Assembly (NCBI GenBank): GCA_963697335.1
Contig: CAVONQ010000018.1
Span: 96,001-160,000 of the forward strand
Origin: an uncultured cyanobacterium
GTDB taxonomy: Bacteria > Cyanobacteriota > Cyanobacteriia > PCC-6307 > Cyanobiaceae
DNA length: 64,000 bases
Reading direction: 5' to 3'
Positions within the stretch are counted from its first letter, which is position 1. Each line of letters begins with the position of its first letter. The position numbers and the translations under genes are program-made. A model generated the notes under the pieces. The model had not been told where the DNA came from and did not search any database. It saw nothing but the letters and a program-made list of their open reading frames with translations. Positions 696 to 18,731 of the stretch are shown piece by piece.

Positions 696-1973
696 TCAAC
701 CTGACTTGACGGAGCGCCCCGGCAGTCCTCCGGCCACCAGGGCCACGACCGCCAGCATCAGGGCGATACCCAGCCACAGCGGGCTTCTCCAGCTGATGGT
801 CTCGAAGGCCAGGCCCCCCAGGGGAGGACCGATGAAGCCCGCCAGACTCTGCAGTCCCTGCAAGCTGCCCAGGGCGGCCCCCTGGCCGGAATCGTCGAGG
901 CGGCGGGACACCAGGGAGCGCAGGCAGGGCGTCACCAGCCCGGTGCCCAGGGCCAGCAGGCCCACGCCGTTGAACACCAGCGTCGTGGCGTTGCTCCGTT
1001 CTGCCAGGGCGACCAGCAGGCAGCCCGCGATCACGAAACCGAGGCCGGCCAGGCTCAGCCGCCACTCGCCGAAGCGTTTGACCAGCGGACCGATCAGACC
1101 CCCCTGCACCAGGGTGGCGACCACGCCCACCACCAGGAAGGCGGCACCGGCCAGGCCCGGGCCCCAGTCGAAAGCCTGTTTGAAATAGAGCACCAGCACG
1201 GCGGTGAAGCCGCTGAAGCCGAGAAAGAACAGAAAGAAGGCGGCGCAGAGGCGACGCACCCGGGAATTGCCGAACACCCGCGCCAGCTGGCTGAAGGGTT
1301 GCAGGTCGCGGCGCCGCGGCAGGGGCAGGCGCGCCTCGGGGGGATGGGTCTCCGGCAGCACCGCCAGCACCAGCACCAAATTGAGCACCGCGATGCCCAC
1401 GGCGATCAGCAGCGGCAGGATCACATTGATACGGCCCAGCAGTCCGCCCATGGCCGGCCCCAGGATGAAACCGAGTCCGAAGGCCACCCCGATCAGTCCG
1501 AAGGCCTTGGCCCGTTTCTCGGGCGGGGTGATGTCCGCCAGGACGGCACTGGCGGTGGCGGCGGTGCCGCCACTGATGCCGTCCACGAGCCGTCCCAGGA
1601 ACAGCAGGCCCAGGGGCAGGGCGCTGCCGGCCGCCCAGGGGATGGTGCTCCAGTCGATCGAGAGGGTGAGGGCGAACAGGCCGAGGCCGAGCACCGATCC
1701 GCCCACACAGGCGGCGATCACGGGGCGGCGGCCGAGATGGTCGCTGAGGGCGCCGATCAGCGGCGTGAAGCTGAACTGGGCCAGGGCATAGCTGCCGGCC
1801 AGCAGCCCCAGGATGCGGCCATCACTGCTGAACCCCGCCAGCAGAAAGGGCAGCAGTGGAAAGATCAGCGACTCGCTCAGGCGGTCGTTGAGCAGCGTGA
1901 GGAAGGCGCAGGCCAGGGTGGAGTTGCGCGAACGCTGCAGAGGGGCCACGGGCACGCAGAGACGTGATCTCAC
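696..1973 (-). CDS. MFS transporter (TetA/DHA1-like family)
   Basis: About 12 hydrophobic segments and MFS motif A (GALSDHLGRRP). Start uncertain. Confidence 0.85.
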   Translation of the reverse strand: MRSRLCVPVAPLQRSRNSTLACAFLTLLNDRLSESLIFPLLPFLLAGFSSDGRILGLLAGSYALAQFSFTPLIGALSDHLGRRPVIAACVGGSVLGLGLFALTLSIDWSTIPWAAGSALPLGLLFLGRLVDGISGGTAATASAVLADITPPEKRAKAFGLIGVAFGLGFILGPAMGGLLGRINVILPLLIAVGIAVLNLVLVLAVLPETHPPEARLPLPRRRDLQPFSQLARVFGNSRVRRLCAAFFLFFLGFSGFTAVLVLYFKQAFDWGPGLAGAAFLVVGVVATLVQGGLIGPLVKRFGEWRLSLAGLGFVIAGCLLVALAERSNATTLVFNGVGLLALGTGLVTPCLRSLVSRRLDDSGQGAALGSLQGLQSLAGFIGPPLGGLAFETISWRSPLWLGIALMLAVVALVAGGLPGRSVKSG

Positions 1974-2075
1974 CCTCCCATGGCCCCTTGCCGCCGCCCC
2001 GTCGCCGCCCCGGGCCGGGCGCTTCCTTGCCCCCTGGCTGTTCTTCCATCAGGCTTGAGTCGCTCTCCGCTGTCC

Positions 2076-4268
2076 GTGGCCATCCCGTTGCCAGCCCAGT
2101 CCGCATCTGAGCCCGGCGGTTCCGCAGCTCCGCTGCGCCTTCTGCTGATCAGCCTGCATGGCCTGATCCGCGGCCACGATCTGGAGCTGGGCCGCGACGC
2201 CGACACGGGCGGCCAGAGCAAATATGTGGTGGAGCTCACCCGGGCGCTGGCTCGCCACCCCCAGGTGGCCGGGGTGGATCTGGTGACCCGCCTGGTGGCC
2301 GATCCAGCCGTGAGCGCCGATTACGCCGTGCCCCTGGAGCCGCTCGGGCCCGGGGCCCGGATCGTGCGGATCGAGGCCGGTCCGGCGGAGTACCTGCGCA
2401 AGGAAGAACTCTGGGACCACCTCGACAGCTTCACCGACAACCTGCTGGCCTGGATCCAGGCCCAGCCCCATCGGCCCGATGTGCTGCACAGCCACTACGC
2501 CGACGCCGGCTACGTGGGGGTGAGGCTGGCCCACCGCACCGGCCTGCCCCTGGTGCACACCGGCCACTCCCTGGGGCGGGACAAGTACCGGCGGCTGCTC
2601 TCCATGGGGCTGTCGCTGGAGCAGATCGAGAGCCGATACAACATCTCCCGCCGCATCGATGCCGAAGAAGATGTGATCACCCAGGCCTCCCTGGTGATCA
2701 CCAGCACCCGCAATGAGATCGAGGATCAATACGGGCTCTACGACGGCTACATCCCCGCCAAGATGGTGGTGATTCCGCCGGGCACCGATCTCGAGCAGTT
2801 CCATCTGCCAGAGGCCACACCGGCTGCGGTCTCCGACCACGACATCGCTGCCGCCGAGGCGTTCAAGACCAGTATCGACGCGTTTCTGAAGCAGCCGCAG
2901 AAGCCGATCATCCTGGCCCTGTCACGGCCCGATCTGCGCAAGAACCTGATCACGCTGGTGGAGGCCTATGGCGCCAGCCTGGCCCTGCAGGAGCTGGCCA
3001 ACCTGGTGATCGTGGCCGGCAACCGCGATGACATCCGCGACCTCGATGAGGGTCCCCAGGCCGTGTTCATCGAGCTGCTGCTGGCGATCGACAGCCACGG
3101 TCTCCAGGGCCGGGTGGCCCTGCCCAAGCACCACAGCGCCGAGCAGGTGCCAATGATCTACCGCCTCGCTGCAGCCTCGCGGGGGGTGTTCATCAACCCG
3201 GCCCTCACCGAGCCGTTTGGGCTCACGCTGCTGGAGGCGGCGGCCAGCGGGTTGCCCGTGGTGGCCACCGAAAACGGCGGGCCGGTGGACATCATCGCCA
3301 ACTGCCGCAATGGCCTGTTGGTGGATCCCCTCAACACCGAGGCCATTGCCGAGGCCCTGCTGGCGATCCTGGCCGACTCCCGCCGCTGGCAGTCCTTCTC
3401 CCGCAACGGTGCACGGCTGGTGGCTTGCCACTACTCCTGGGACGCCCACGCTGAGACCTACCTGCGCAAACTGCACCACCTGGTGGAGGGAAGCCTCGAC
3501 GTGCCGGCAGCGCCGATGGTGCGCAGCACCCGGGGGCACAGCAAGGCCCTGTTCACCGCGGTGGACAACACCCTGCTGGGCGACCGGGCCGGCCTCGACG
3601 AGCTCAGCACCGTGCTCAGGGGGCGGGGCAACGACTGGCTGTTCGGCATCGCCAGCGGCCGCCGCCTCGATTCGCTGCTGGGCATCATCCGCGAGTACGG
3701 CATTCCCCTGCCGGACATTCTGATCACCAGCCTGGGCACGGAGATCTACTACTCGCCGAACTGGTTGCCCGACCTGGCCTGGGCCTCCCACATCAACCAT
3801 CTGTGGACCCCGTGGATGATCCGGCGACTGTTGCGGGAACTGCCAGGCCTGCACCTCCAGGCCCGCAACGAACAGAGCACGTTCAAGTTGTCGTATCACT
3901 ACGACGCCGCCCTGGCGCCCCCGATGGAGGAGCTGCGGACCCTGCTGAGGCAGCACGAACTCTCGGTGAACCTCACCCTCTCCTTCGGGCAATTCCTCGA
4001 CCTGGTGCCGGCCCGCGCCTCCAAGGGCCAGGCACTGCGCTTCGCGGCCCAGCGCTGGCGGATTCCCCTGGAGCGCATCCTGGTCACGGGCGGTTCCGGG
4101 GGCGATGAAGACATGCTGCGCGGCAACACCCTCGGCGTGGTGGTGGCCAACCGCCATTGCGAGGAACTCTCCAACCTGGGCGAGACCGAGCACATCTACC
4201 TGGCCTCCCAGTCCCACGCCCGGGGCATTCTCGAGGCCATCGACCACTACGACTTCCTGAGCCTCTAG
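2076..4268 (+). CDS. spsA: Sucrose-phosphate synthase (GT-B domain plus C-terminal HAD/SPP-like domain)
   Basis: ISLHGLIRG..LELGRDADTGGQ, HSHYADAG and EPFGLTLLEAAA motifs. ORF track start is 1980; in-frame GTG 2076 is likelier. Confidence 0.93.
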   Translation: MAIPLPAQSASEPGGSAAPLRLLLISLHGLIRGHDLELGRDADTGGQSKYVVELTRALARHPQVAGVDLVTRLVADPAVSADYAVPLEPLGPGARIVRIEAGPAEYLRKEELWDHLDSFTDNLLAWIQAQPHRPDVLHSHYADAGYVGVRLAHRTGLPLVHTGHSLGRDKYRRLLSMGLSLEQIESRYNISRRIDAEEDVITQASLVITSTRNEIEDQYGLYDGYIPAKMVVIPPGTDLEQFHLPEATPAAVSDHDIAAAEAFKTSIDAFLKQPQKPIILALSRPDLRKNLITLVEAYGASLALQELANLVIVAGNRDDIRDLDEGPQAVFIELLLAIDSHGLQGRVALPKHHSAEQVPMIYRLAAASRGVFINPALTEPFGLTLLEAAASGLPVVATENGGPVDIIANCRNGLLVDPLNTEAIAEALLAILADSRRWQSFSRNGARLVACHYSWDAHAETYLRKLHHLVEGSLDVPAAPMVRSTRGHSKALFTAVDNTLLGDRAGLDELSTVLRGRGNDWLFGIASGRRLDSLLGIIREYGIPLPDILITSLGTEIYYSPNWLPDLAWASHINHLWTPWMIRRLLRELPGLHLQARNEQSTFKLSYHYDAALAPPMEELRTLLRQHELSVNLTLSFGQFLDLVPARASKGQALRFAAQRWRIPLERILVTGGSGGDEDMLRGNTLGVVVANRHCEELSNLGETEHIYLASQSHARGILEAIDHYDFLSL

Positions 4269-4337
4269 GGCCTGGACCAGCGCCCCCCCGCGTCAGACTC
4301 GGCTGGCGTTGACGTGTGGGGAGGGTCCCCTCGGCTG

Positions 4338-5714
4338 ATGGCCTCCGATCCCCGCTCGGCTTTGCAACCCCCACCTCAGACTGGGCAACGGCCGCTGCCC
4401 CCCTCGCGGCTGTTGCTCTGCAGTGATCTCGACCGCACCCTGGTGCCGAACGGCCACCAGAGCGAATCCAGCGCGGCCAGGGGCCTGTTCGCCCGCCTGG
4501 TGCAGCGCCCCGAGCTCACCCTGGCCTACGTGTCCGGCCGGGATCCGGCCCTGGTGGCCGAGGCGATCGAGCGCTACGCCCTGCCCGTTCCGGCCTGGGT
4601 GGTGGCCGATGTGGGCACCACCATTCTGGAGGTGGCGTCGTCTGGGTGGATCCGGCACCGGGGCTGGGATGGGGCGATCGCCGCCGACTGGGGCGGCCGC
4701 AGCGGCGAGGAGCTGTGGCCACTGCTGGAGGACCTGCCGGAGCTGCGGCTGCAGGAGCCCAGCCGCCAGAGCCTCCACAAGCTGAGCTTCTATGTGGACC
4801 CGGCCCTGGAGCTGGCGCCGCTGCGGGCCCAGATCGAGACGCGGCTGGCGCATGAGGGGGTAGCGGCCAGCGTGATCCACAGCCTGGATGGGGCGGCCGG
4901 CGTGGGCCTGCTGGATGTGTTGCCCGCTTCCGCCACGAAACTGCACGCCGTGCGCTTCCTGATGGCCCAGCTGGGCTTCGGCCGCGACGACACCCTGTTC
5001 GCCGGCGACAGCGGCAACGACCTGCCGGTGCTCCAGAGCGAGCTGCGCTCGATCCTGGTGGCCAATGCCGACCCGGCGGTGAAGCAGGCCCTGGGTCTGC
5101 CCGCTCCTGCCCGGGAGCAGATCTATCTGGCCCAGGGGGAGTTCATGGGCATGAACGGCAACTACGCCGCAGGGGTGGTGGAGGGGGTGGTGCACCACTG
5201 CCCCGGGGCGGCGGCCTGGTTGGTGGAGTCTTGGCTCACCCACCTGAACAGCCGCGGCGAGGCCCGCATGGTGGAGGTGGGGGAGCGGCCCTCCAGCCTG
5301 CGCAGCGCCGTGGCGGAGGGCTTCATCAGCATGGATCCGGCTCTGCTGGCGGCGGTGCTGGAGGGCCGCACCGCCAAGGGGGATGTGCTCGCCGTGGCCC
5401 GGGTGGCGGCGATTCAGGCGGCCAAGCGCACCTCGGAACTGATCCCCCTCTGCCACCCCCTGGCCCTGACCGGCCTCGACGTGACGATCGAGCCAGCCCA
5501 GCAGCGCTCCGGCCTCAGGGTGGAGGTGGCGGCCCGCACCACCGGTCCCACCGGGGTGGAGATGGAGGCGCTCACGGCGGTACAGGTGGGCCTGCTCACC
5601 CTGTACGACATGGTGAAGTCCAGGGATCCCGCCATGACCATCGGGCCCGTGCGGCTGGTGCGCAAGGACGGTGGGCGCCATGGGCTCTGGGTCCGCCCCG
5701 AAGCAGAGGTCTGA
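4338..5714 (+). CDS. moaC: Fusion of HAD-IIB sucrose-phosphatase-like domain and MoaC (cyclic pyranopterin monophosphate synthase)
   Basis: N-terminal CSDLDRTL and [11 protein letters not shown] motifs. From about 5235: LTHL...[50 protein letters not shown] (MoaC signatures). Single open frame. Confidence 0.88.
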
Positions 5715-5720
5715 GACGCC

Positions 5721-6965
5721 ATGGCTGAACCGTTCCCCGCCGAGGGCCTGCCCCTGGACGCTGCCCGCCGCCAAGTGCTGGAGGCCCTGCAACCGCTCTC
5801 CGGCTCGCAAGAGGCGCCCCTGGCCGCGGCGCTGGGCCGGGTCACGGCCGCGGCGGTGGTGGCGGCCCAGGCGGTGCCGGGGTTCAGGGCCTCGATCATG
5901 GATGGCTATGCGCTGGCCGGCTCGGCGCTGCCGCCGCAGCTCGACAGCCGCTGGCGGCTGGTGGGCCGCTCCGCTCCCGGCGCTCCGTTCGAGCGCCCGC
6001 TGCAGAGCGGCGAGGCCGTGCGCATTCTCACGGGGGCGCCGCTGCCTGAGGGCTCGGAGCGGGTGCTGCCCCAGGAGCTGGTGGGGATCGATCCGGCCGG
6101 CGCCGAGCTGGTGCTGCAGCGCGCCGCCGGAGAGAACCCCTGGATCCGGGCGGCCGACGAAGAGGCTGCCCCCGGCCAGGTGCTGATCGAGGCCGGCCAG
6201 CGCCTCGGGCCCGCCGACCTGGCGCGGCTGGCCAGCTGCGGCGTGGCCTCCCTGTCGCTGCGGCCGCAGCCGCGGCTGGGCCTGCTGATCAGCGGCGATG
6301 AGCTCACACCCGTGGGGCAGCCGCGGCCAGCGGGGGCGATCTGGGAGAGCAACGGCACCCTGCTGGAGGCGCTGCTGGCGCGGCTGGGCTACGGGGTTGA
6401 GGCCTGCCTCGTGGTGGCCGATGACCCCCAGAGCCTGCGGCGGGCCCTCGAGCAGCTGGCGGCCAGTTGCGATGTGGTGGTGAGCACCGGTGGCGTGTCG
6501 GCAGGCGACAGCGACTGGATCCGCCCCCTGGTGGAGGAGCTGGGTGCGGTGGCGTTCTGGAAGCTGTTCCTCAGGCCGGGCCGCCCCTTCGCCTTCGGGC
6601 AGGTGCTGGGCCGGCCCTTCTTCGGCCTGCCAGGCAATCCGGTGGCGGCGGCGATCACGGCGCTGCAGCTGCTCTGGCCGGCCCTGCAGCGGCTGGAGGG
6701 CGCCGAGGTGGCGTTGCTGCCACGCCTGCAGGTGCAGCTGGCCACGCCCCTGCGCCGCTCCCCCGGGCGGCCGGAGCTGGCCCGGGCCCGCCTGGAGGTG
6801 AGCGCCTCCGGCCAGCCCCTGGCCAGGCTGGAGGGCAGCCAGGCCTCATCCCGGATCGGCTCGCTGCAGGGGGCGGATCTGCTGCTGGAACTCCCCGCCG
6901 ACTGCGCTGGCCTCGAGGCGGGGGCCAGGGTCTGGGCCCAGTTGTTGCGGCTGCCGCTCTTCTGA
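5721..6965 (+). CDS. moeA: Molybdopterin molybdenumtransferase
   Basis: SIMDGYA, RILTGAPLP, SGDEL, STGGVSAGDSD and GLPGNP motifs. Confidence 0.95.
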   Translation: MAEPFPAEGLPLDAARRQVLEALQPLSGSQEAPLAAALGRVTAAAVVAAQAVPGFRASIMDGYALAGSALPPQLDSRWRLVGRSAPGAPFERPLQSGEAVRILTGAPLPEGSERVLPQELVGIDPAGAELVLQRAAGENPWIRAADEEAAPGQVLIEAGQRLGPADLARLASCGVASLSLRPQPRLGLLISGDELTPVGQPRPAGAIWESNGTLLEALLARLGYGVEACLVVADDPQSLRRALEQLAASCDVVVSTGGVSAGDSDWIRPLVEELGAVAFWKLFLRPGRPFAFGQVLGRPFFGLPGNPVAAAITALQLLWPALQRLEGAEVALLPRLQVQLATPLRRSPGRPELARARLEVSASGQPLARLEGSQASSRIGSLQGADLLLELPADCAGLEAGARVWAQLLRLPLF

Positions 6966-6982
6966 GCGGGGGGCCTGGAGCT

Positions 6983-7441
6983 TCAGAAGGCGGTGTTGCC
7001 CTCCACCCAGCGGCTCTCGCCGCTGCGCAGCCACTCCCGTTTCCAGAACGGGGCGTCGTGCTTGAGGGCTTCCAGCAGGGCCTGGCAGCAGCGCTGGGCG
7101 GGGCCACGGCGGTCGGCGGCCACGGCCACCAGCACGATGGCGTCCCCTGGCAGCACCCGGCCCACCCGGTGCTGCACCAGCAGGGCAGCGACCCCATGGC
7201 GCTCGCCCAGCTCCTGGGCCTGGCTGCCCAGGCAGTGCTCCGTCATGCCGGGATAGTGCTCCAGCTCCAGGGCCTCCAGGGGCTCCCCCCGGCCGTCATG
7301 GCCCCGCACCCGGCCGATGAACCAGGCTTCGGCGGCGCTGGCACCGAGCGGCCCCTCGGCCAGGGCCCGCTGCCAGCTCTGGAGCTGTTGCAGCGGATCA
7401 AAGGGCTGGGGCCGCAGCGCGAGGGTCACCTCCACGGTCAA
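6983..7441 (-). CDS. moaE: Molybdopterin synthase large subunit
   Basis: FIGRVR, LELEHYPGM, HRVG and LKHDAPFWKRE motifs. Confidence 0.93.
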   Translation of the reverse strand: MTVEVTLALRPQPFDPLQQLQSWQRALAEGPLGASAAEAWFIGRVRGHDGRGEPLEALELEHYPGMTEHCLGSQAQELGERHGVAALLVQHRVGRVLPGDAIVLVAVAADRRGPAQRCCQALLEALKHDAPFWKREWLRSGESRWVEGNTAF

Positions 7442-7803
7442 CCCCCGCTGATCGGCGGCAGGAAGGCCAGCTCGTCGCCCGCTTGCAAGGGCTGCTCCGC
7501 TGCGGCAAAGCGCTGGTTGATGGCAACGCGCAGGCCGGCCGGCCAGCCCAGGGGGGGCCTGGAGCTCCCGCTGGCCGGCTCCAGGGTCTCACCGAGTTCC
7601 AGCTGCTCCCAGATGTCCAGGGCCGAGACCGGCCCGCTCACCGGCAGGGCCAGCTGCCGTTCGCTCCAGCCGGCCCGCTCCCGCAGTGAGGCGAACAGCA
7701 GCACCCTCAGTTCGCCGCCACCACCGCTGCCGCCCCCAGGAACCCCAACGCCCCCGCCCAACGGCTGCGATTCTCGGCTCTGAGGCGGGGTTGGCTTCGG
7801 CAT
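7438..7803 (-). CDS. moaD: Molybdopterin synthase sulfur carrier
   Basis: VLLFASLRERAG and C-terminal GDELAFLPPISGG. Start may lie further downstream. Confidence 0.9.
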   Translation of the reverse strand: MPKPTPPQSRESQPLGGGVGVPGGGSGGGGELRVLLFASLRERAGWSERQLALPVSGPVSALDIWEQLELGETLEPASGSSRPPLGWPAGLRVAINQRFAAAEQPLQAGDELAFLPPISGG

Positions 7804-7886: not shown

Positions 7887-8396
7887 GTGGGTCTTTCCAT
7901 CGCCTTGCTCAGCGTGTCGGACAGCCGCACCCTGGCGGAAGACCACTCCGGTGACGCCCTGCTGGAGCGCCTTCTGGCGGCGGGCCACCGGCTGGCCGAT
8001 CGGCAGCTGGTGCCCGACAACCGCTATCGGATCCGGGCGGCCCTGAGCAGCTGGATCGCCGACCCCGCTGTGCAGGTGGTGATCAGTTCCGGCGGCACCG
8101 GCCTCACCGGCCGGGACGGCACCCCCGAGGCCGTGGCGCCGCTGCTGGACAAGACGATCGACGGCTTCGGAGAACTCTTCCGGGTGCTCTCCTTCGAGAC
8201 CATCGGCACCAGTTCCCTGCAGAGCCGTTGCCTGGCCGGGGTGGCCAACGGCACCGTGGTGTTCGTGCTGCCGGGCTCCCTCGATGCGGTGCAGACCGCC
8301 TGGGACCGCCTGATCCAGGCCCAGCTCAGCGCCGAGACCCGTCCCTGCAACCTGGTGCAGCTGCTGCCGCGTCTGGGGGAACCCAGCGGCGACTAA
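7887..8396 (+). CDS. moaB: Molybdenum cofactor biosynthesis protein B
   Basis: LSVSDSR, SGGTGLTGRDGTPEA, LPGS and RPCN motifs. In-frame GTG at 7887. Confidence 0.92.
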   Translation: MGLSIALLSVSDSRTLAEDHSGDALLERLLAAGHRLADRQLVPDNRYRIRAALSSWIADPAVQVVISSGGTGLTGRDGTPEAVAPLLDKTIDGFGELFRVLSFETIGTSSLQSRCLAGVANGTVVFVLPGSLDAVQTAWDRLIQAQLSAETRPCNLVQLLPRLGEPSGD

Positions 8397-10189: not shown

Positions 10190-10297
10190 AGAAAAAGGAC
10201 AGGCTGTCTGGTGTAGTTGCGATGCGGCTTGCATGATGCGCCGCTGAACAGATCTGGCTCAGCGTTCGGAAGCTTCGATCATAATTCCCACCTCGAC

Positions 10298-11863
10298 ATG
10301 CTCGGTGAACTCTGGTCACTCCAGGGGAGATACAAGACGCTGCATCTCACCTGGTTTGCATTCTTTCTTACGTTTGTCGTCTGGTTCAACCTGGCTCCCC
10401 TGGCGACCACCGTCAAGGCGGATCTGGGCCTCACCGTTCCCCAGATTCGCACCGTTGCGATCTGCAACGTGGCCCTCACCGTGCCGGCGCGCATTCTGAT
10501 CGGCATGCTGCTGGACAAGTACGGGCCCCGCATCACGTACTCCACTCTGCTGATTTTTTCGGCTTTTCCCTGTCTGCTGTTCGCCTTCGCTCAGGACTTC
10601 AACCAGCTGGTGGTGGCTCGCCTGCTGCTTTCGATCGTCGGTGCCGGCTTTGTGATCGGCATTCGCATGGTGGCTGAATGGTTCCCGCCCAAGGAGATCG
10701 GCCTGGCTGAAGGCATCTACGGCGGCTGGGGCAACTTCGGCTCCGCCTTCTCGGCGCTCACCATGGTGACCCTGGCCGGCTGGCTCTCCTTCGGTGGTGG
10801 TTTCGCCGTTGATGGCATCGTGCTGAACTGGCGCGGAGCCATTGCCCTCTCCGGCATCATTGCCGCCATCTACGGCGTCTTCTACTACTTCAACGTTGAG
10901 GACACGCCGCCTGGTCGGATCTATCAGCGCCCGGCCAAGACCGCTGGCCTGGAGGTCACCTCCATGCGGGACTTCTGGGGTCTGATCGGCATGAACGTGC
11001 CCTTCGGCGTGATTCTGGCAGTGCTCGCCTGGCGGCTTCAGAAGGTGAAGTTCCTCGATGACACCGGCTTTGCCATCGCCATCGTGCTGGTGCTTCTCTT
11101 CTTCGGTTTCCAGACCTGGGGCATCATCCGTACCAACAAGGAGCTGATCACAGGAGCCAAGGTGTATCCCAAGGAGGATCGCTATGAGTTCAAGCAGGTG
11201 GCCATTCTGGAGCTCACCTACATCGTGAACTTCGGTTCGGAGCTGGCGGTGGTGTCGATGCTTCCCACCTTCTTCGAAACCACCTTTGCCCTGCCCAAGG
11301 CCACGGCCGGAATCCTGGCCTCGGCCTTTGCCTTCGTGAACCTGGTGGCGCGCCCCGGCGGTGGACTGCTCTCCGACAAGCTCGGATCCCGCAAGTCCAC
11401 CATGGGCTTCCTCACCGTTGGTCTTGGTTTCGGCTATCTGCTGATGAGCATGATCAAGCCCGGAACGTTCGTCGGTTCCGCCGGCATCGTGCTGGCTCTG
11501 GTGATCACCATGGTCTGCTCCTTCTTCGTGCAGGCCGGGGAGGGATCCACCTTCGCCATGGTGCCCCTGGTCAAGCGCCGGGTCACCGGCCAGATCGCTG
11601 GCATGGTGGGCGCCTACGGCAACGTGGGTGCCGTGGCCTATCTCACCATCTACAGCCTGCTGCCGCTGTGGTTGTCCGGCGCCGCCGATGCCGAACCCAC
11701 CCCCGCCGTGGTGGCGGCCTCCAACAGTGCCTTCTTCCAGGTGCTGGGCATAGCTGGTCTGATCGTTGGCTTCCTCTGCTACTTCGTGCTGAAGGAGCCC
11801 AAGGGATCCTTTGCTGATCTCCATGAGGGAGAAACAGCTGCGGCCGCCGCGACGGGGGTCTGA
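10298..11863 (+). CDS. nrtP: Nitrate/nitrite MFS permease NrtP (NapA)
   Basis: LHLTWFAFFLTFVVWFN, GWGNFG nitrate signature, ELTYIVNFGSELAVVSMLP; directly upstream of narB. Confidence 0.95.
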   Translation: MLGELWSLQGRYKTLHLTWFAFFLTFVVWFNLAPLATTVKADLGLTVPQIRTVAICNVALTVPARILIGMLLDKYGPRITYSTLLIFSAFPCLLFAFAQDFNQLVVARLLLSIVGAGFVIGIRMVAEWFPPKEIGLAEGIYGGWGNFGSAFSALTMVTLAGWLSFGGGFAVDGIVLNWRGAIALSGIIAAIYGVFYYFNVEDTPPGRIYQRPAKTAGLEVTSMRDFWGLIGMNVPFGVILAVLAWRLQKVKFLDDTGFAIAIVLVLLFFGFQTWGIIRTNKELITGAKVYPKEDRYEFKQVAILELTYIVNFGSELAVVSMLPTFFETTFALPKATAGILASAFAFVNLVARPGGGLLSDKLGSRKSTMGFLTVGLGFGYLLMSMIKPGTFVGSAGIVLALVITMVCSFFVQAGEGSTFAMVPLVKRRVTGQIAGMVGAYGNVGAVAYLTIYSLLPLWLSGAADAEPTPAVVAASNSAFFQVLGIAGLIVGFLCYFVLKEPKGSFADLHEGETAAAAATGV

Positions 11864-11892
11864 TCCCGGATCTCAGCCGCATCGCTGCTGTG

Positions 11893-11922
11893 GGGCAGGC
11901 CCAGGGTCTGCCCTTCTTCTTT
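11893..11922 (+). terminator. Terminator-like hairpin between nrtP and narB
   Basis: GGGCAGGCC-CAG-GGTCTGCCC (9 bp, one G-U pair) followed by TTCTTCTTT. Confidence 0.55.
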
Positions 11923-11944
11923 GTCCGTCTGTTCTGTGAGCTCC

Positions 11945-14152
11945 ATGGCTGCATCCCCACCCGGTTCGGTGCGCTCCCAGTGCCCCTACTGCGGCGTGGG
12001 CTGCGGCCTGGAGTTGCTGCCCCCTGCCGCCAAGAATCAGCCCACCCGGCGGGATGCTGACGGCCTGCCGCTGTGGGGCACCCGGGGGGACCGGCTCCAC
12101 CCCTCCAGCCTGGGGCAGGTGTGCATCAAGGGAGCCACGGTGTGCGACACCCTGCGCCACGGCCGCCTCAGCCAGCCGCTGGCTCGCGCCAGCCTGGACG
12201 AGCCCTTCCAGCCGATCAGCTGGGACGCGGCCCTCGATCGCATCGTGGCCCGGATCCGCAGCTCCCTGGCCAGCAAGGGGCCCGGAGCGATCGCCATGTA
12301 CGGCTCTGGTCAGTTTCATATCGAGGACTATTACGTCGCCCAGAAGTTGCTCAAGGGGGCGATCGGCACCAACAACTTCGATGCCAACTCACGCCTGTGC
12401 ATGAGTTCGGCCGTGGCGGGCTATGCCCGCAGCCTCGGCTCCGACGGCCCCCCCTGCTGCTACGAGGATCTCGACCACTGCGCCGTGGCCTTCCTGATCG
12501 GCACCAACACCGCGGAGTGCCATCCGGTGCTGTTTCAGCGGCTGCTGAAGCGCAAACGGCGCCAGCCCGGCAGTGTCACCATCGTGGTGGTGGATCCCAG
12601 GCAGACGGCCACCAGCGATGCGGCCGACCTGCACCTGGCCCTTCGCCCGGGCACGGATCTGGTGCTGATGCATGGCCTGGCCCATCTGATGGTGCAGGCG
12701 CTCACCATCGACGTGGACTTCATCGAGGAGGCCACCGAGGGCTTCGCCGCCTATGCCGAGCTGTTGCAGGCCTGGACCCCCGAGCGGGTCAGCCGGCTGT
12801 GCGGCATCAGTGAGGCGGCCCTGCGGCAGCTGGCCCAGCTCTGGGGCCAGGCCCCCAGCGTGCTCAGCCTCTGGTCGATGGGCCTCAACCAGAGCGTGGA
12901 GGGCACCGCCAAGGTGGCGGGCCTGATCAACCTGCACCTGCTCACCGGCCAGATCGGCAAGGTGGGAGCGGGGCCCTTCTCCCTCACTGGCCAGCCCAAT
13001 GCCATGGGCGGCCGCGAAGCCGGTGGGCTGGCCCACCTGTTGCCGGGTTATCGCACGGTGGTTGATCCCAGCCACCGGGCCACGGTGGAGGCGGCCTGGG
13101 GGTTCGGGGCCGGGGCGATCGATCCCGCCCCTGGTCTCGATGCCTGGCGCCAGGTGGAGGCGATGGAGTCCGGCGCCCTCGATCTCTGGTGGGTGGCGGC
13201 CACCAATCCCCTGGTGAGCATGCCCAACCTGGAGCGGGTCAAGGCCGCCGTGAGCCGCTGCCCCCTGGTGGTGCTCAGCGATGCCTATGCCGACACCGAG
13301 ACCGCCCAGTACGCCCACCTGGTGCTGCCGGCGGCCCAGTGGAGTGAAAAGCCCGGGGTCATGGTGAATTCGGAGCGGCGGGTCACCCTTTGCCCGGCCT
13401 TTCGGCCGCCCCCCGGGGAGGCCCGCCCCGATTGGCAGGTGTTCGCGGAGGTGGGCCGCAGGCTGGGCTTCGTCGAGCCCTTCAACTACGGCTCCGCCGC
13501 GGAGGTCTATGCCGAGCTGGCCGCCCTCACGGCCGGCCGTGCCTGCGACCACTCCGGCCTCAGCCACGGCCTGCTGGCCAGCGAGGGCCCCCAGCAATGG
13601 CCCTTCCCCAGCGGCTCAGCCCCTGGCCATGAGCCCAGGCGCCTCTACACCGACTACCGCTTCCCCACCGCCAGTGGTCGGGCCCGCTTCATCGCCGAGC
13701 AGCCCATGGGTCTGGCGGAGCCCCCCAGTGAGGCCTACCCCCTGGTGCTCACGGTGGGCCGCTACCTGGGCCAGTGGCACACCATGACGCGCACGGCCAA
13801 GGTGCCTCGCCTCAACGCCCTGCACCCCGAGCCCCTGCTGGAGATCCATCCTGAGGATGCCGGGCCCCTCGGCCTGGACGATGGCGCCATGGCTGAGATC
13901 CGCTCGCTGCGCGGCACGATCACGGCCAAGGCGGCGGTGACCGAGCGCATCCGACCGGGCACCGTGTTTCTGCCGATGCACTGGGGCTTCATGCAGGAGC
14001 AGGCCTGTGAGGCCAATGCCCTGCTGCACGAGCAGGCCTGCCCGATCTCCAGGCAGCCCGAGCTCAAGGCCGCCGCCGTCGCTGTAGCCCGGGTTCAGGC
14101 CGCGGCCCCGGCGGTGGGAAACAGTTCCCTCAGGGCTGCGGGCAGGTTGTGA
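11945..14152 (+). CDS. narB: Ferredoxin-nitrate reductase
   Basis: CPYCGVGC..C 4Fe-4S motif, NFDANSRLCMSSA, LTGQPNAMGGRE and QPELK motifs. Confidence 0.96.
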   Translation: MAASPPGSVRSQCPYCGVGCGLELLPPAAKNQPTRRDADGLPLWGTRGDRLHPSSLGQVCIKGATVCDTLRHGRLSQPLARASLDEPFQPISWDAALDRIVARIRSSLASKGPGAIAMYGSGQFHIEDYYVAQKLLKGAIGTNNFDANSRLCMSSAVAGYARSLGSDGPPCCYEDLDHCAVAFLIGTNTAECHPVLFQRLLKRKRRQPGSVTIVVVDPRQTATSDAADLHLALRPGTDLVLMHGLAHLMVQALTIDVDFIEEATEGFAAYAELLQAWTPERVSRLCGISEAALRQLAQLWGQAPSVLSLWSMGLNQSVEGTAKVAGLINLHLLTGQIGKVGAGPFSLTGQPNAMGGREAGGLAHLLPGYRTVVDPSHRATVEAAWGFGAGAIDPAPGLDAWRQVEAMESGALDLWWVAATNPLVSMPNLERVKAAVSRCPLVVLSDAYADTETAQYAHLVLPAAQWSEKPGVMVNSERRVTLCPAFRPPPGEARPDWQVFAEVGRRLGFVEPFNYGSAAEVYAELAALTAGRACDHSGLSHGLLASEGPQQWPFPSGSAPGHEPRRLYTDYRFPTASGRARFIAEQPMGLAEPPSEAYPLVLTVGRYLGQWHTMTRTAKVPRLNALHPEPLLEIHPEDAGPLGLDDGAMAEIRSLRGTITAKAAVTERIRPGTVFLPMHWGFMQEQACEANALLHEQACPISRQPELKAAAVAVARVQAAAPAVGNSSLRAAGRL

Positions 14153-14583
14153 TGGTCGTGGCCAGGGCGGGCCAGCTTGCAGAGGGCAAACCGCTCCAGC
14201 TCCGAGAGAGCGTTCCACTGGTCAGGCCCCAGGGCGTAGCCCAGCTCTGCGGCTGAGCTGCTCACATCCCGGGGGGGGATACCGGGGTGTTGCCAGGGGG
14301 CGTCGTGGGGGATGGGCAGGGACGCGACCCCGCCGTCCGCCATGGCCGCCGTGCTGGCCTGCAGGTCGACGGCCATGGCCGCCAGGTCATCGGGACCGTC
14401 GGGCCAGAGCACCAGCTGATCCCGTTGGGCTGCCGTGAGCGCCAGCCAGTGGTTGAGCCTCAGTTTCACACCACAGAGATCGAGCTTGCGGCGCAGGCAG
14501 AGGGGAATGCAGCGCCAGTTGCCCACGAAGTCGCGCTCGAAGTCGAAGCAGTGGGAGGAAGGATGGGAGCCCTCAGGAAGCAT
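14095..14583 (-). CDS. narM: Nitrate reductase-associated protein NarM
   Basis: FDFERDF..WRCIPLCLRRKLDLCGVKLRL..W and RFALCKLARPGHDHHNL motifs; convergent with narB. Confidence 0.88.
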   Translation of the reverse strand: MLPEGSHPSSHCFDFERDFVGNWRCIPLCLRRKLDLCGVKLRLNHWLALTAAQRDQLVLWPDGPDDLAAMAVDLQASTAAMADGGVASLPIPHDAPWQHPGIPPRDVSSSAAELGYALGPDQWNALSELERFALCKLARPGHDHHNLPAALRELFPTAGAAA

Positions 14584-15754
14584 CGTGTCTCCACTGGATC
14601 AGGGACCGCAGCTGGGTGAGTAGCGCGCCGCTCTCAACCAGCTGCGTGGCACGGACCACGCCCGCAGCCAGATCATGGCAAACACCGCCATACCAGAGGT
14701 AGGCCCCGGTATTCCAGATCAGGGCTCTGGCCAGGGGCCCCTGGCCGCCGAGGGCGGCGAGGGCCTGCTCGCGCCAGCCCTCCAGATCCTGCCAAAGGGC
14801 ATCGGTGTCGTAACAGCCATGGTCGCGGGGGTGAAGAATCAGACGCTCCCCCTCACCCCCCTCGGCCCGGGCCGTGATGCAGGCGCGGCTGATCGGCAGG
14901 TCGGTGCTGCCTTCGAGCCCCTTCACCGTGATGGTGACAGCCTCCCCGGCCAGCTCCAGGGCCTTCCAGGCCCGGCTTTCGGTGGGGGGATGCACGAAGC
15001 CGCTCACCAGCAGGTGGGGGCCCTGATGGGCGGTCCAGAGCAGTTCGAGGCTGGCTACCGGGGGGCGCTTGCCGAGGTCGTCGCGGATCGGCGTGAGGCT
15101 CTCCGCCAACGGGAAGTGATCCGGCTGGTGCACCAGGGCCAGGCGGTGCTGCGTCAGCCCCGCCTGCAGCGTGGCCAGGTCCAGCCCGTGCAGCTCCAGC
15201 CCCAGGGCGGCGAACAGCTCCATGGCCGTCACCCCGTATTTCACCGGCATGCGGGCCCCGCCCTGCAGCACCACGGGCAGCCCGGCCGCACTCAGGGCCA
15301 GGGCTGTGAGCGGGTAGATCGGGGCCGTGCGGGTGCGGCCGTCAAAGGGCATGCCGAAGCAGAGGGCGGGCACGGCACTGGTCAGACGTGGCCCCAGGCG
15401 TCGGTAGACATCCAGCATCCCGGCCAGTTCCTGGGGCTCGGGCCGCCGGATCCGATGGGCGATCAGGAAGGCGCCGATCTGGGCCGGCGTGGCCTCCCCC
15501 AGCAGCATCAGTTCCAGCGCATGGCCGGCCTCCTCCCGGCTGAGGCCGCGGCTGGTGTGCTCGCCACTGCCCACCTTCTGCAGGTAGTGCTTGAAGCGCT
15601 CGCGGCCAGACAGAAGCTCCGCAGCAGCAGCCGCTTGGCCGTTGAGTCCGGTCTCAGGGGTGGCGTTGGGGAGGGTGCCGGAGGGGAGCGCCATCAAGGA
15701 CCTGGGGGAGGTGGCAGCGAGCGCCGCACTGGCAACAGGGTCGATGAACCCCAT
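14573..15754 (-). CDS. Anthranilate phosphoribosyltransferase / glycosyltransferase family 3 protein (CnaT/YbiB-like)
   Basis: KVGSGEHTSRGLSREEA, AQIGAFLIAHRIRRP, GFVHPPTE and KGLEGS motifs. The ORF track start (16387) is over-extended; ATG 15754 or 15694 is likelier. Confidence 0.85.
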   Translation of the reverse strand: MGFIDPVASAALAATSPRSLMALPSGTLPNATPETGLNGQAAAAAELLSGRERFKHYLQKVGSGEHTSRGLSREEAGHALELMLLGEATPAQIGAFLIAHRIRRPEPQELAGMLDVYRRLGPRLTSAVPALCFGMPFDGRTRTAPIYPLTALALSAAGLPVVLQGGARMPVKYGVTAMELFAALGLELHGLDLATLQAGLTQHRLALVHQPDHFPLAESLTPIRDDLGKRPPVASLELLWTAHQGPHLLVSGFVHPPTESRAWKALELAGEAVTITVKGLEGSTDLPISRACITARAEGGEGERLILHPRDHGCYDTDALWQDLEGWREQALAALGGQGPLARALIWNTGAYLWYGGVCHDLAAGVVRATQLVESGALLTQLRSLIQWRHDAS

Positions 15755-15813
15755 GCTGTCACCAGCGGTCGTCCAACGTGTGCCCACCGAACAGAGGCCA
15801 GGACGGAAAAGAA

Positions 15814-15827
15814 GTATCAACCGACAC
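15814..15827. promoter_or_regulatory. Putative NtcA box
   Basis: GTA-TCAACCGA-CAC in the divergent gap before the cnaT-like gene. Confidence 0.45.
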
Positions 15828-16141
15828 GGAAGAGATCCTGAAGATTGCCGCCGGGGCCGGGCGGCTTCGGTTCGGTACCAACCGCTGCATCCCGATGGCC
15901 CCGTGGCTGGAGACAGTCGCTGATCACTTCTCGGAGCGCGGATGCGATTTGCTGCCTGCTGCGGGCTTCTGCTCGGATGCCTGCATGGTCTGGTGAGCCT
16001 TGAGCTGCGGCCCAGCAGCGCCTTCAAGGTGCCCGGATCAGCTCTGTTGGGGTCCTGGAGCCCTGCTCCCCCAGCTGGCGCCGGCTTCTGAATCCCCTCA
16101 TCCGGCTTCGATACTGGAGTCTGTTCTTCGGCAGCTCCGCC

Positions 16142-16348
16142 ATGGCCACCCCGCTGCAGACCACCCGTAGCGCCAGCTCCCCCCTCGGCGTCGCCCTCGC
16201 CTTCGTCGGCATGTTTGTGGTGGGGTCCCTGGGGGTTCAGTTGCTGGCTGAACTGCCTCACGACGCGGCGCCTGCCTCCTCCGCCGGGCGAGCCGCCTCG
16301 GTGGTGGCCCATCCCGCCACCCTCTGGAGTGCCCTGGGCGAGCGCTGA
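16142..16348 (+). CDS. Small hypothetical membrane protein (68 aa)
   Basis: ATG-started ORF in an otherwise intergenic gap, with one hydrophobic segment (LGVALAFVGMFVVGSLGVQLLA). Confidence 0.55.
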   Translation: MATPLQTTRSASSPLGVALAFVGMFVVGSLGVQLLAELPHDAAPASSAGRAASVVAHPATLWSALGER

Positions 16349-16376
16349 GGCCAGCCAGGTCAGGGATAACAGATCC

Positions 16377-16418
16377 GTAACGACCACGACACCCGGTCCT
16401 GGCCCGCGCCTGCAGGAT
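16377..16418 (+). promoter_or_regulatory. Putative NtcA-activated promoter of nirA
   Basis: GTA-ACGACCAC-GAC (16377-16390), 22-nt spacer, -10-like CAGGAT (16413-16418). Confidence 0.55.
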
Positions 16419-16629
16419 CAGTTCAGGTCTGTGATTGCAGATCCCAGCTCATCTCGAAGGGGAGCCGCAGCGCCATGGCGTCGCCCTCCCATTCCGGACA
16501 ACGCATCCCTCATTGGCGTTCACCGGCCGCATCCCCTCCCGATCCCTGGGGCTGCGCTTGGTGGTGCCATGGGGTCCCGTTCACGGCCGCGTTGTCTGGG
16601 CGTGCACTGGCGCGCCGTATCCATCTTCC

Positions 16630-18195
16630 ATGAGCTCTTCCAGCACCCCCGCTGCGCCCGCCCCCAGCTCCGGCCTCACCAAGGTGGAGCAGGCCAAGGC
16701 CGATCTCTGCGGCCTCGATCTGCAACCCCAGCTGGCCGAGCTGGCCGCCGCCGGTTGGGACAGCCTCGACGAGGCCACCCTCACCATCCGGCTCAAGTGG
16801 ATGGGCATCTTCTTCCGGCCCGTCACCCCGGGTCGTTTCATGCTGCGGCTGCGGCTCCCGAACGGCGTGATCAGCGCTGAGCAGCTGGAGCTGCTCTCCG
16901 AAGCGGTGGATCGCTGTGGAGAGCACGGCAGCGCCGACATCACCACCCGCCAGAACCTGCAGTTGCGGGGCCTGTTGTTCGAGGACATGGCGCCGCTGCT
17001 CCAGGCCATGGAGCGGGTGGGCCTGACCAGTCGCCAGTCGGGACACGACAACCCGCGCAACATCACCGGCAACCCCCTGGCAGGAATCGATCCCGAGGAG
17101 ATCGTCGACACCCGCCCCCTCGTGCAGGCGATCCAGGCGCGGCTGTTCCAGCCCGATGGCCCCCGCAACCTGCCGCGCAAGTTCAACGTGGCCGTGGGCG
17201 GTGCCCCCGACAGCTTCCTGCTCCACAACGACCTCGCCTTCCTGCCCGCTTATCACGGCAGCGACCTCGGTTTCACCGTGATGGTGGGTGGCTTCTTCTC
17301 CGCCCAGCGCAACGAACTGGCCATCCCGCTCGGTCTCTGGCTACGGGCCGATCAGCTGCCCGATTTTGCCCTGGCCGTGCTGCTGCACTTCGAGCAGAAC
17401 GGCAACCGCAAGCTGCGCAACAAGAGCCGGCTGATGTATCTGATCGATGAGCTGGGGCTGGAGCCCTACCGAGAGGCGGTCACGGCGGCCTACGGCGCCC
17501 TGGCCGGCGCCGAGGCGATGGCCTCCCTGCAGCGCCACGACGGCAGTCACCTGGTGACGCGGGCCCCCCGCGATGGCCTCGGCTGGCATCCCCAGGCCCA
17601 GGAGGGGCTCGGCTGGATGGGCCTGCACGTGCCCATGGGCCGCCTCGATGCCGAGGCGATGCTGGCCCTGGCCGGTTTGGCCCGGCAGTACGGCAGCGGT
17701 GAACTGCGGCTCACCGAGGCCCAGAACGCCCTGATCGTGAACGTGCCGGAAGCGAGCCAGGAGGCCTTGCTGGCCGAGCCCCTGCTGCAACGCTTCCGCC
17801 CCGATCCAGGCCCCCTGCAGGCCGAGGCCGTGAGCTGCACCGGCAACGCCTACTGCAGCTTTGCCCTCATTCCCACCAAGAGCACGGCCCAGGAGCTGGT
17901 GGAGGAGCTGGAGCGGCGGGTGGAGCTGCCCCATGGGGTGCGCACCCACTGGACCGGTTGCCCCAACGCCTGCGGCCAGCCCTACATGGGCCAGATCGGC
18001 CTGATGGGCGCCAAGACGCGCAAGGACGGCGAGATGGTGGAGGCGGTGAAGATCTTCCTCGGAGGCTCCATGGACGCCGAGCCCAGGCTTGCTGAGCTGC
18101 ACGATAAGGGCGTGCCCCTCAGCGACCTACCGGACGTGATGGAGCAGCTGCTGGTTGACCGCTTCGGAGCGCGCCGGAAGGCCTCGGCTGCCTGA
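16630..18195 (+). CDS. nirA: Ferredoxin-nitrite reductase
   Basis: FMLRLRLPNG, ADITTRQNLQLR, LPRKFN and siroheme/4Fe-4S cysteines CTGNAYC and TGCPNAC. Confidence 0.96.
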   Translation: MSSSSTPAAPAPSSGLTKVEQAKADLCGLDLQPQLAELAAAGWDSLDEATLTIRLKWMGIFFRPVTPGRFMLRLRLPNGVISAEQLELLSEAVDRCGEHGSADITTRQNLQLRGLLFEDMAPLLQAMERVGLTSRQSGHDNPRNITGNPLAGIDPEEIVDTRPLVQAIQARLFQPDGPRNLPRKFNVAVGGAPDSFLLHNDLAFLPAYHGSDLGFTVMVGGFFSAQRNELAIPLGLWLRADQLPDFALAVLLHFEQNGNRKLRNKSRLMYLIDELGLEPYREAVTAAYGALAGAEAMASLQRHDGSHLVTRAPRDGLGWHPQAQEGLGWMGLHVPMGRLDAEAMLALAGLARQYGSGELRLTEAQNALIVNVPEASQEALLAEPLLQRFRPDPGPLQAEAVSCTGNAYCSFALIPTKSTAQELVEELERRVELPHGVRTHWTGCPNACGQPYMGQIGLMGAKTRKDGEMVEAVKIFLGGSMDAEPRLAELHDKGVPLSDLPDVMEQLLVDRFGARRKASAA

Positions 18196-18582
18196 GGGGC
18201 GCTGCTTGAACACCCTGTTGCGCAGCCAGGAGCCCACCGATCCAGTGCCGGATTGGCTGGCCTGGCGGCGACACCAGCGTTGATCCAGTTGCACCAGGGC
18301 CTGCCGATCTCCGCTCTCCTCGCCCGCGTACAGCAGGTGGATGAGCCGCTCGGGATCGAGTTCAAGCAGCGCCGCCTCCTGCCAGAGACGCTGGCTGCGC
18401 ATCTGGTCTCCCTGGCGGAACTGGGCCTGGGCCAGCTGCTCCGCCAGGCTCACCAGGAGCTGCTGTTCCTTCACGGCAGCGAGCCTGGCGCCGTCAATCC
18501 GCCCAGGGGGTCCCTGGAGGTTGCCCGGATCGCGGGTCCGGTTGCCCTGGGAGACGCATCCAGCCTTCGTTCTCTGGCCCAT
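18127..18582 (-). CDS. Hypothetical protein convergent with and overlapping the nirA 3' end
   Basis: Protein-like helical core (LVSLAEQLAQAQFRQGDQMRSQRLWQEAALLELDPERLIHLLY) fills the nirA-cbiX gap; ATG at 18582. Confidence 0.5.
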   Translation of the reverse strand: MGQRTKAGCVSQGNRTRDPGNLQGPPGRIDGARLAAVKEQQLLVSLAEQLAQAQFRQGDQMRSQRLWQEAALLELDPERLIHLLYAGEESGDRQALVQLDQRWCRRQASQSGTGSVGSWLRNRVFKQRPSGSRGLPARSEAVNQQLLHHVR

Positions 18583-18653
18583 GGTCTTTTGCTCTTCTTC
18601 CTGGTTCCTTGATAGAGCCGATGCCTGAAGCCAGCCCTTTATCCACATCAAAC

Positions 18654-18667
18654 GTATCGGTGGCTAC
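18654..18667. promoter_or_regulatory. NtcA box (perfect consensus)
   Basis: GTA-TCGGTGGC-TAC between divergent genes. Confidence 0.7.
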
Positions 18668-18731
18668 AGAACAGCCCTCCCGCGCCCTGGGGCCGGTGCC
18701 ATCGTTAAGGGCAGGTCGGCAGGAGAGCGTT

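Follow-up and report, generated by a model that had tools for sequence, protein, structure and literature searches.

A sucrose-6-phosphate-phosphatase-type domain joined in frame to MoaC in a small Cyanobium group, probably through loss of the gene between them

Why should a phosphatase of sucrose synthesis and MoaC, an enzyme of molybdopterin cofactor synthesis, be encoded as one chain? The question is raised by a stretch of 64,000 nucleotides from an uncultured cyanobacterium of the family Cyanobiaceae (assembly GCA_963697335.1, contig CAVONQ010000018.1, positions 96,001 to 160,000), the whole of which we call the window. Here a phosphatase domain of the sucrose-6-phosphate phosphatase (SPP) type is followed by MoaC in the same open reading frame (ORF), which we designate spp::moaC. 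Taking the parts of the explanation together, we consider it probable that spp::moaC encodes one two-domain protein of about 49 kDa in which both halves function, and that the fusion arose once, by deletion of a gene that stood between spp and moaC, and has since been retained while at least four species diverged.

A preliminary description of this DNA had reported one ORF combining an intact HAD-IIB phosphatase with a full MoaC and a near-zero linker, 69 bp after sps (encoding sucrose-phosphate synthase, SPS) and 6 bp before moeA, with no further moaC in the window. The Pfam and NCBIfam domains and a five-residue junction bear out the first of these statements and our coordinates agree with the second; no other moaC lies in the window, and the MoaC family PF01967 has a single match genome-wide. 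The single open frame covers 4314..5714 of the forward strand and ends with a stop codon at 5712-5714; residues are numbered here from its first ATG, a GTG at 4314 being an alternative start. The S6PP match (PF05116) reaches E 1.8e-46 and 159.2 bits against a cut-off of 20.3, over profile positions 2-244 of 247, and the MoaC match takes in residues 311-446 and the entire profile, positions 1-136 of 136 (E 3.2e-50, 170 bits, cut-off 27). The HAD-IIB phosphatase and MoaC are separated by a linker of about five residues, within the junction sequence [29 protein letters not shown] (core [14 protein letters not shown]), where the codons are TTG at 5220, GTG at 5223 and CTC (L300) at 5235.

The phosphatase half carries the catalytic motifs DLDRT (D30 and D32) and GDSGND (D224, N227 and D228), together with S66 and K201, and both motifs are kept in all four genomes that encode the fusion. 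In an alignment to the Synechocystis SPP structure 1s2o, D9, D11, G42, Q107, K116, K163, D186 and N189 are kept and T41 is replaced by Ser; residues D30, D32, S66, G67, Q139, K148, K201, D224 and N227 of the fusion correspond to catalytic or sucrose-6-phosphate (S6P)-binding positions of 1s2o. The accessible part of one report lists Asp11, Thr41, Gly42, Gln107, Lys116, Lys163 and Asn189 as the S6P-binding residues of the Synechocystis enzyme (SPP_6803), and describes Gln107 and Lys116 as variable positions in SPP-like and generic HAD-IIB proteins (10.64898/2026.09.11.751015). Six of these seven residues are identical in the fusion, the seventh being the exchange of Thr41 for Ser, and the equivalents of Gln107 and Lys116 are both retained (Q139 and K148). 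The C-terminal tail, of the type found in standalone SPPs, continues to W294-L295. The gene also stands where an spp gene is found elsewhere, directly 3' of sps, in the window's own genome (G000) as in G012, G019, G002, G009, G006, G069 and G120 (our handles for the genomes compared); the SPP of G069 is identical to a protein named from Synechococcus sp. CBW1002. By its sequence, the phosphatase half would be a working sucrose-6-phosphate phosphatase.

MoaC is the cyclic pyranopterin monophosphate (cPMP) synthase, which makes cPMP from 3',8-cH2GTP. The MoaC half also exceeds the cut-offs of its NCBIfam models (TIGR00581, 183.6 against 141.5; NF006870, 203 against 162). A phmmer comparison with E. 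coli MoaC (4pyd/1ekr) places query residues 298/299-450 on residues 2/3-154 at 1e-44, and K347, K363, H373, E408, E410, D424 and K427 are identical to the aligned residues. Two of these, K347 and D424, correspond to E. coli K51 and D128, the two positions changed in the variants deposited in the PDB as 4pya and 1eks; we take H77, K67, E112, E114 and K131 of the E. coli protein to be active-site residues as well.

The content of the window's own genome (2.58 Mb, 98.8% complete) suggests that the fusion has been kept because each half would be the only working copy. PF01967 is matched in the fusion alone. PF05116 has two matches, the fusion phosphatase and the C-terminal domain of SPS, and the latter, aligned to 1s2o (E 2.8e-33), has Ala in place of the nucleophile D9 and Gly in place of both D186 and N189. 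Loss of these residues is the pattern of an inactive bidomainal SPS, according to the available sections of two reports (PMC9971976; 10.64898/2026.09.11.751015). Because the phosphatase-like domain of SPS lacks its nucleophile, that of the fusion is the only intact S6PP-family domain in the genome; further PF08282 matches are short C-terminal motif matches, mostly in very long frames. MoaC has a client, since a NarB-type oxidoreductase and moa genes lie in the window, and the enzyme it would serve is the NarB nitrate reductase, whose gene lies 6 kb downstream.

Purifying selection acts on both halves. Calculated by the Nei-Gojobori method, dN/dS of the HAD part is 0.29 between G000 and G012 and 0.25 between G019 and G002, and that of the MoaC part is 0.065 and 0.077 for the same pairs. 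As comparators, the standalone SPP gives 0.19 (G069-G120), MoeA 0.16-0.22 (three pairs) and SPS 0.09-0.13 (three pairs). Constraint on the phosphatase half is about as strong as on the neighbouring genes.

An AlphaFold model of the fusion, built on an alignment of 41 rows, has a mean pLDDT of 83.5 and a pTM of 0.62, with segments of low confidence at residues 1-15, 298-313 and 370-373. Its best solved matches are 1s2o for the phosphatase (E 2.1e-19, TM-score by target 0.85) and, in the Foldseek search, MoaC 4pyd_C (E 9e-17, TM-score by target 0.86). A two-copy model scored 0.50, against 0.28 for the best control, and its runs share at least 59% of contacts with a partner pLDDT of at least 78; of proteins with solved structures, 20 of 30 pairs attained a score of 0.50, as did 1 of 23 single chains. 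Confident contacts are confined to residues 353-454, within the MoaC domain. As MoaC oligomers have already been solved, this pass may be a memory of known structures, and we read the dimer model as a likeness to solved MoaC oligomers, not as proof of binding. MoaC in general is a hexamer built from dimers, with its active sites at the dimer interfaces. In the fusion it would oligomerise by its usual interface, and the phosphatase domains, of 30 kDa each and six to a hexamer, would hang outside it on a short flexible linker.

How widely is the fusion found? Of the 32 genomes of the genus, the window's own included, four have a full-length match, and the partners of G000 are G012 (93% identity, query residues 1-458), G019 (71%, 17-455) and G002 (71%, 15-455). 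Full-length matches in the 401 sampled genomes of the family are these same four. The two-domain architecture, which the preliminary description knew from the window alone, is therefore shared with relatives, and the same type of phosphatase is a separate gene in G009 and G006. MoaC occurs alone in 23 genomes of the genus (E <= 1e-40), with no match at that threshold in G020, G022 and G046. Matches of MoaC that reach upstream (query from 254-290) in G024, G349, G099, G008, G007 and G016 were considered as possible phosphatase relics and rejected, the upstream frames being unrelated sequence. Among the best 120 proteins of a collection of 5.8 billion, both Pfam domains are present in the four metagenome clusters P0002-P0005 (84-97% identity), and the remaining 116 proteins are standalone phosphatases with a length of about 280 aa. 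No full-length fusion appears among the best 150 of 1.84 billion representatives (one per 50% cluster), which is weak evidence on distribution because a shorter representative may hide a fusion; in the 90%-identity collection the fusion clusters are indeed represented by short MoaC records. A contig-wide search with peptide patterns returned four distant loci and no fusion, the patterns being too specific.

The fusion is already present in the databases under names that hide it, because each record is named after one half only. The G019 protein is EDY38321.1 (Cyanobium sp. PCC 7001, 454 aa) and the G002 protein is SBO44158.1 (Cyanobium sp. NIES-981, 456 aa), both named solely "HAD-superfamily hydrolase subfamily IIB". 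RefSeq-type records in the same clusters are MoaC proteins of 169/171 aa, in which the Leu of WLEP (CTG) is read as the initiating Met; for the ORFs concerned (G019, L015:7315-8676, reverse strand; G002, L016:5368-6735, forward strand), such a record leaves the phosphatase without a product of its own. This is a warning for annotation, as one activity, the only MoaC or the sole active sucrose-phosphate phosphatase, is lost from metabolic reconstructions for the Cyanobium strains concerned. The S6PP-MoaC architecture was not found in the searchable literature, a search that did not extend to supplementary tables, which may list the PCC 7001 protein. Nothing usable on the growth of PCC 7001 with nitrate came up either.

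The comparison with G009 points to how the fusion arose. Gene orders were read from Pfam matches on all 124 open frames in three loci that reach 140 aa or more, and from tblastn with the G009 proteins. In G009 the order is MFS (reverse strand), sps, spp, a 660-aa GH13 alpha-amylase-family gene (amylosucrase-like, ams), moaC, moeA and moaE; in G000, G012, G019 and G002 it is MFS (reverse strand), sps, spp::moaC, moeA and moaE; and in G069 and G120, which belong to another genus, it is moaC, moeA, sps, spp, ams and moaE. Relative to G009, about 2.2 kb is gone from the fusion genomes, comprising the spp stop, ams and the moaC start. The G009 SPP ends in ...STWLEAC* and its MoaC begins with MDGSQLSHLN, and the junctions of the fusions read WLEAPA-LTHLN in G012, [11 protein letters not shown] in G000, WLEP-LPHLN in G019 and WLEPGP-LPHLN in G002 (part of the comparison: [31 protein letters not shown]). 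The phosphatase is thus retained to within 1-2 residues of its natural end, and MoaC from 2-3 residues before the conserved LxHLN. Eight linker variants were seen (VESW, VESG, VEPG, EAPA, DAPA, EAPG, EPGP and EP), and all eight are in frame; the linker of G019 is two codons shorter with the reading frame kept. We propose that the ancestor had the order sps-spp-ams-moaC-moeA, as G009 has today, and that a deletion of about 2.2 kb took the last spp codon or codons with the stop, the whole of ams and the first moaC codons, so that the frames of spp and moaC would have been joined by chance. The preliminary description had offered, as an alternative, an insertion scar that had lost a stop codon; the scar and the lost stop stand, and the comparison with G009 replaces the insertion by a deletion of ams.

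Phylogeny agrees with a single event. In a maximum-likelihood tree of 25 phosphatases (7 fused, 4 standalone from the loci and 14 hand-picked for taxonomic spread), all 7 fused domains fall together in a single clade (support 98/95), with the standalone group of G009, G069 and G120 as its sister. The MoaC tree (18 rows) is poorly resolved and groups the fused MoaC with that of G009 at a weak 78/94, which does not contradict a single origin; G349 and G099, in which the start motif was not located, were left out of it, as were the three distant MoaC loci L019-L021 from alignment A1. Insertion of ams into an ancestral fusion would be unparsimonious, because the cassette exists as a unit elsewhere and a standalone MoaC is the rule. 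The accessible part of PMC9971976 reports that Synechococcus sp. PCC 7002 has an operon with the order sps-spp-fructokinase-ams. Cyanobium sp. PCC 7001 is entered as SPP-positive and AMS-negative in Table 1 of Kolman et al., 2015 (PMC4390843), as far as the available portion of that article goes, which is consistent with the gene content found here. Neither of these portions names MoaC. No ams orthologue was found in the window's own genome, whose closest GH13 match shows 36% identity. Outside the window, at G000:C18:541153-542481, lies a gene for a GH100 alkaline/neutral invertase (PF12899, E 1.2e-173), likely the remaining route of sucrose breakdown, which would therefore not depend on ams.

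The cassette has a history of its own. As a unit, sps-spp-ams has moved around the moa cluster, standing after moeA in G069 and G120 (L025/L026) and before moaC in G009 (L013). In L014 (G006:C104, 4808-6184) the ams-like gene after sps-spp is split into three fragments that lie in different frames, and moeA is fragmented too; these may be independent decay of ams or errors, G006 being 78% complete and 6% contaminated. The nearest non-cyanobacterial relatives of the phosphatase are in Methylococcales and Gallionellaceae/Sideroxydans (52-55% identity), and the G006 phosphatase falls on the proteobacterial side on a long branch, which hints at lateral transfer of the cassette.

Other explanations of the locus were weighed against this one. 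To an artefact of assembly or sequencing that hides a stop or frameshift at the junction we give practically no credence. Contigs from three runs in three studies bridge the junction with 0 gaps and no indel listed: X1 (108,293 nt) over 4100-5900, with 26 substitutions relative to the window, although it may be the window's own sample; X6 (5,160 nt) over 4409-5900; and X10 (693 nt) over 4626-5318. The interval 5200-5250, singled out in the preliminary description as the place where an error would show, has no listed indel in these assembled contigs, and the frame is kept in all three runs. Each of the three carries 5232 T>G (W299G) without an indel, so the linker is polymorphic but in frame, and the Trp of the window is the minority form among the sequences seen. 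As three other genomes, two of them assembled as a single contig, have this architecture too, the fusion is not an assembly error. Unlikely, though deserving some weight, is the idea that MoaC is made mainly from an internal start (TTG/CTG at L295, GTG at 5223 or ATG at M311) and that the full-length fusion is minor or unimportant. In-frame TTG and GTG codons are there at 5220 and 5223, the short database records begin at the equivalent Leu of the G019 and G002 proteins, and the ATG of M311 is conserved in all MoaC sequences seen. Against this, codon 295 differs among the genomes (TTG in G000 and G012, CTG in G019 and G002), no Shine-Dalgarno-like motif is evident by inspection before 5220, and a start at M311 would delete the conserved LTHLN...GEAR strand. 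The GTG at 5223, which the preliminary description had proposed as a retained start of MoaC, fares no better: codon 296 is GTG in G000 only, relatives have GAG, and G019 has two linker codons fewer. The changes in the linker, including that difference of two codons, all keep the frame, as expected if MoaC depends on upstream translation, although such events are few; and because no stop codon lies between the domains, a ribosome that has translated the phosphatase always goes on into MoaC. That the phosphatase half is a decaying relic, and the protein a MoaC with a dead N-terminal passenger, is in our view very improbable. Its dN/dS is about four times that of MoaC and its score lies under the TIGR01485 cut-off, yet G000 retains the catalytic and S6P-binding positions, all four genomes retain DLDRT and GDSGND, the dN/dS of 0.25-0.29 is near that of the standalone SPP (0.19) and MoeA (0.21), and this is the sole intact S6PP-family domain, beside an SPS without a nucleophile.

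There is a small chance that the fusion is adaptive, either by tying cofactor supply for nitrate reduction to a sucrose operon regulated by salt or carbon, or by giving the phosphatase a scaffold in the form of the MoaC oligomer. The genes sps, spp::moaC and moeA all run in one direction, separated by 69 and 6 bp and by no terminator-like site, at least four species have retained the fusion, and sps and spp are salt-induced in other cyanobacteria, according to the accessible part of PMC9971976. We think it similarly doubtful that the fusion does what separate proteins could not, for example that a MoaC hexamer displays six phosphatases which dock on the dead SPS domain as a sucrose metabolon, or that synthesis of the NarB cofactor is slaved to a sucrose promoter and links osmotic or carbon-overflow status to nitrate assimilation. 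The same gene order exists in G009 without the fusion; the linkage of sucrose and moa genes therefore predates the fusion and needs none. The fusion is also rare (4 of 401 sampled family genomes), has no second origin among the best 150 library representatives and none outside the clade among the best 120 proteins, and its linker is short and variable. The two enzymes have no common substrate or pathway and no known metabolic link. The fusion thus looks like an evolutionary accident, probably a neutral one, and not like a new link between pathways. Each domain would do its ordinary job, with no chemistry common to both; production of MoaC and the phosphatase in a 1:1 ratio, and control of moaC-moeA expression by sucrose-gene signals, would be a consequence of the fusion and probably not its purpose.

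Several observations weigh against a functional two-domain protein that arose by deletion, the explanation we prefer. The plant/cyanobacterial SPP equivalog TIGR01485 is missed, at 88.8 bits against a cut-off of 183.65, and the substrate of the phosphatase is therefore taken from residues, fold and gene context only; the domain falls in a clade common with proteobacteria and not in the canonical TIGR01485 equivalog. The dN/dS of the HAD part is above that of the standalone SPP (0.25-0.29 against 0.19) and may indicate mild relaxation. In the structural model the N-terminal strand of MoaC and the linker, residues 298-313, have pLDDT <50. Since RefSeq-type MoaC records of 169/171 aa exist for two strains, at least one annotation pipeline prefers the internal start. 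Finally, the direction of the event, deletion and not insertion of ams, is set by parsimony and not by a rooted species tree.

The features of the locus are collected in Table 1. The MFS gene that flanks sps is also found in G009, G012, G019 and G002 (76-83% identity, tblastn). The true start of sps is uncertain, the profile matches beginning at residue 52. A scan of 1500-7300 gave 0 promoter-like and 0 terminator-like sites (shuffles expect 0.1 and 0.9, respectively), a scan that is uninformative at this high G+C. The position of moaC-moeA behind sps-spp without a detectable terminator is consistent with one transcript. A nitrate-assimilation cluster (10217-22817) adjoins the moa genes and also holds a tetrapyrrole methylase and a formate/nitrite transporter.

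Table 1. Position, strand and basis of assignment of spp::moaC, its parts and the surrounding genes in the window
Feature	Position	Strand	Basis or detail
MFS transporter gene, conserved left flank of the sucrose cassette	696..1973	-	Pfam MFS_1 2.5e-57
sps, bidomainal sucrose-phosphate synthase (glycosyltransferase + phosphatase-like domain)	1980..4268	+	TIGR02472 645 bits (cut-off 576), TIGR02471 276.7 bits (cut-off 209.75)
sps-spp spacer, 69 bp	4269..4337	+	sequence
spp::moaC fusion ORF	4338..5714	+	458 aa + stop; Pfam, NCBIfam
HAD-IIB sucrose-6-phosphate-phosphatase-type domain, residues 24-286	4407..5195	+	PF05116
Junction/linker L295-V-E-S-W299	5220..5234	+	comparison with G009 SPP end and MoaC start
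MoaC domain, residues 300-458	5235..5711	+	complete from the counterpart of residue 3/4 in E. coli MoaC
moeA (molybdopterin molybdotransferase)	5721..6965	+	ATG 5721, 6 bp after fusion stop; Pfam MoeA_N, MoCF_biosynth, MoeA_C
moaE	6983-7441	-	Pfam MoaE 4.9e-24
moaD	7438-7803	-	Pfam ThiS 1.2e-12
moaB/mog-type gene	7896-8396	+	Pfam MoCF_biosynth
moaA	8393-9706	-	Pfam Radical_SAM + Mob_synth_C
MFS permease, nitrate assimilation	10217-11863	+	Pfam MFS_1
NarB-type molybdopterin oxidoreductase	11921-14152	+	Pfam Molybdopterin, Molydop_binding, Fe4S4
Frame with glycosyl-transferase family 3 N-terminal domain	14573-16387	-	Pfam
Ferredoxin-nitrite-reductase type gene	16435-18195	+	Pfam NIR_SIR

The S6PP-MoaC protein combines known enzymes in a new domain architecture and is as such of modest interest; it reveals no new pathway or mechanism. 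Its value is as a clean case in which unrelated enzymes would have been fused through loss of the intervening gene, the unfused arrangement persisting in the sister genome G009. It is also a caution for "Rosetta-stone" inference of function from fusions, and a natural test of the N-terminal cargo that a MoaC oligomer tolerates.

Each half can be set beside known systems. The SPP of Synechocystis sp. PCC 6803 (slr0953, 1s2o) is the best solved structural match and its S6P-binding positions are aligned and kept but for T41; the fusion is only 24% identical to it, with an N-terminal extension of 23 residues and a longer C-terminal region. Closer are the standalone SPPs of the sps-spp-ams cassette (G009 and G069, with relatives in Methylococcales and Gallionellaceae), at 60-64% identity over residues 13-298, which have in common with the fusion the position after sps, the motifs and the tail ...GMNGNY..G..EG..H..P....WL. 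These proteins stop 1-3 residues past WL(E/A), whereas the frame of the fusion continues into MoaC. The bidomainal SPS encoded next door is likewise a fusion with an SPP-type domain, but its partner is the pathway's own synthase.

On the other side of the junction, the MoaC half is about 50% identical to E. coli MoaC (1ekr, 4pyd) over residues 299-450, with K51 and D128 kept, and differs in that an enzyme domain of 299 residues at the N terminus replaces the first 2-3 residues. An N-terminal partner is not unusual for the MoaC fold, since natural fusions of this kind exist: among the library matches MoaC follows MoCF_biosynth, Clp_N, Nitr_red_assoc or a second MoaC. Other odd architectures among the proteins retrieved (P0246, P0260, P0269, P0216, P0224, P0273, P0162) are Clp_N-MoaC, Nitr_red_assoc-MoaC, tandem MoaC-MoaC, MoaC with a GNAT acetyltransferase, and S6PP-YcgL. 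P0185 (590 aa) is a MoaC-MoeA fusion at the corresponding locus in other genera of the family, its MoaC part being 68% identical to the MoaC domain studied here, and long open frames around MoaC in G202:C15 (590 aa) and G101:C5 (486 aa) may also be MoaC-MoeA. The models of known MoaC fusion families are missed by spp::moaC, MoaC/MoaB (NF002947) at 171 against 285, MoaC/MOSC (NF011069) at 150.6 against 457 and MoaC/MobA (NF011070) at 107.6 against 606, and in each comparison only the MoaC half matches. The eukaryotic MOCS1A-MOCS1B is another known MoaC-containing fusion. In these known families MoaC likewise lies inside a larger polypeptide, with partners that belong mostly to the cofactor or nitrate pathway; unlike them, spp::moaC joins MoaC to an enzyme of sugar metabolism.

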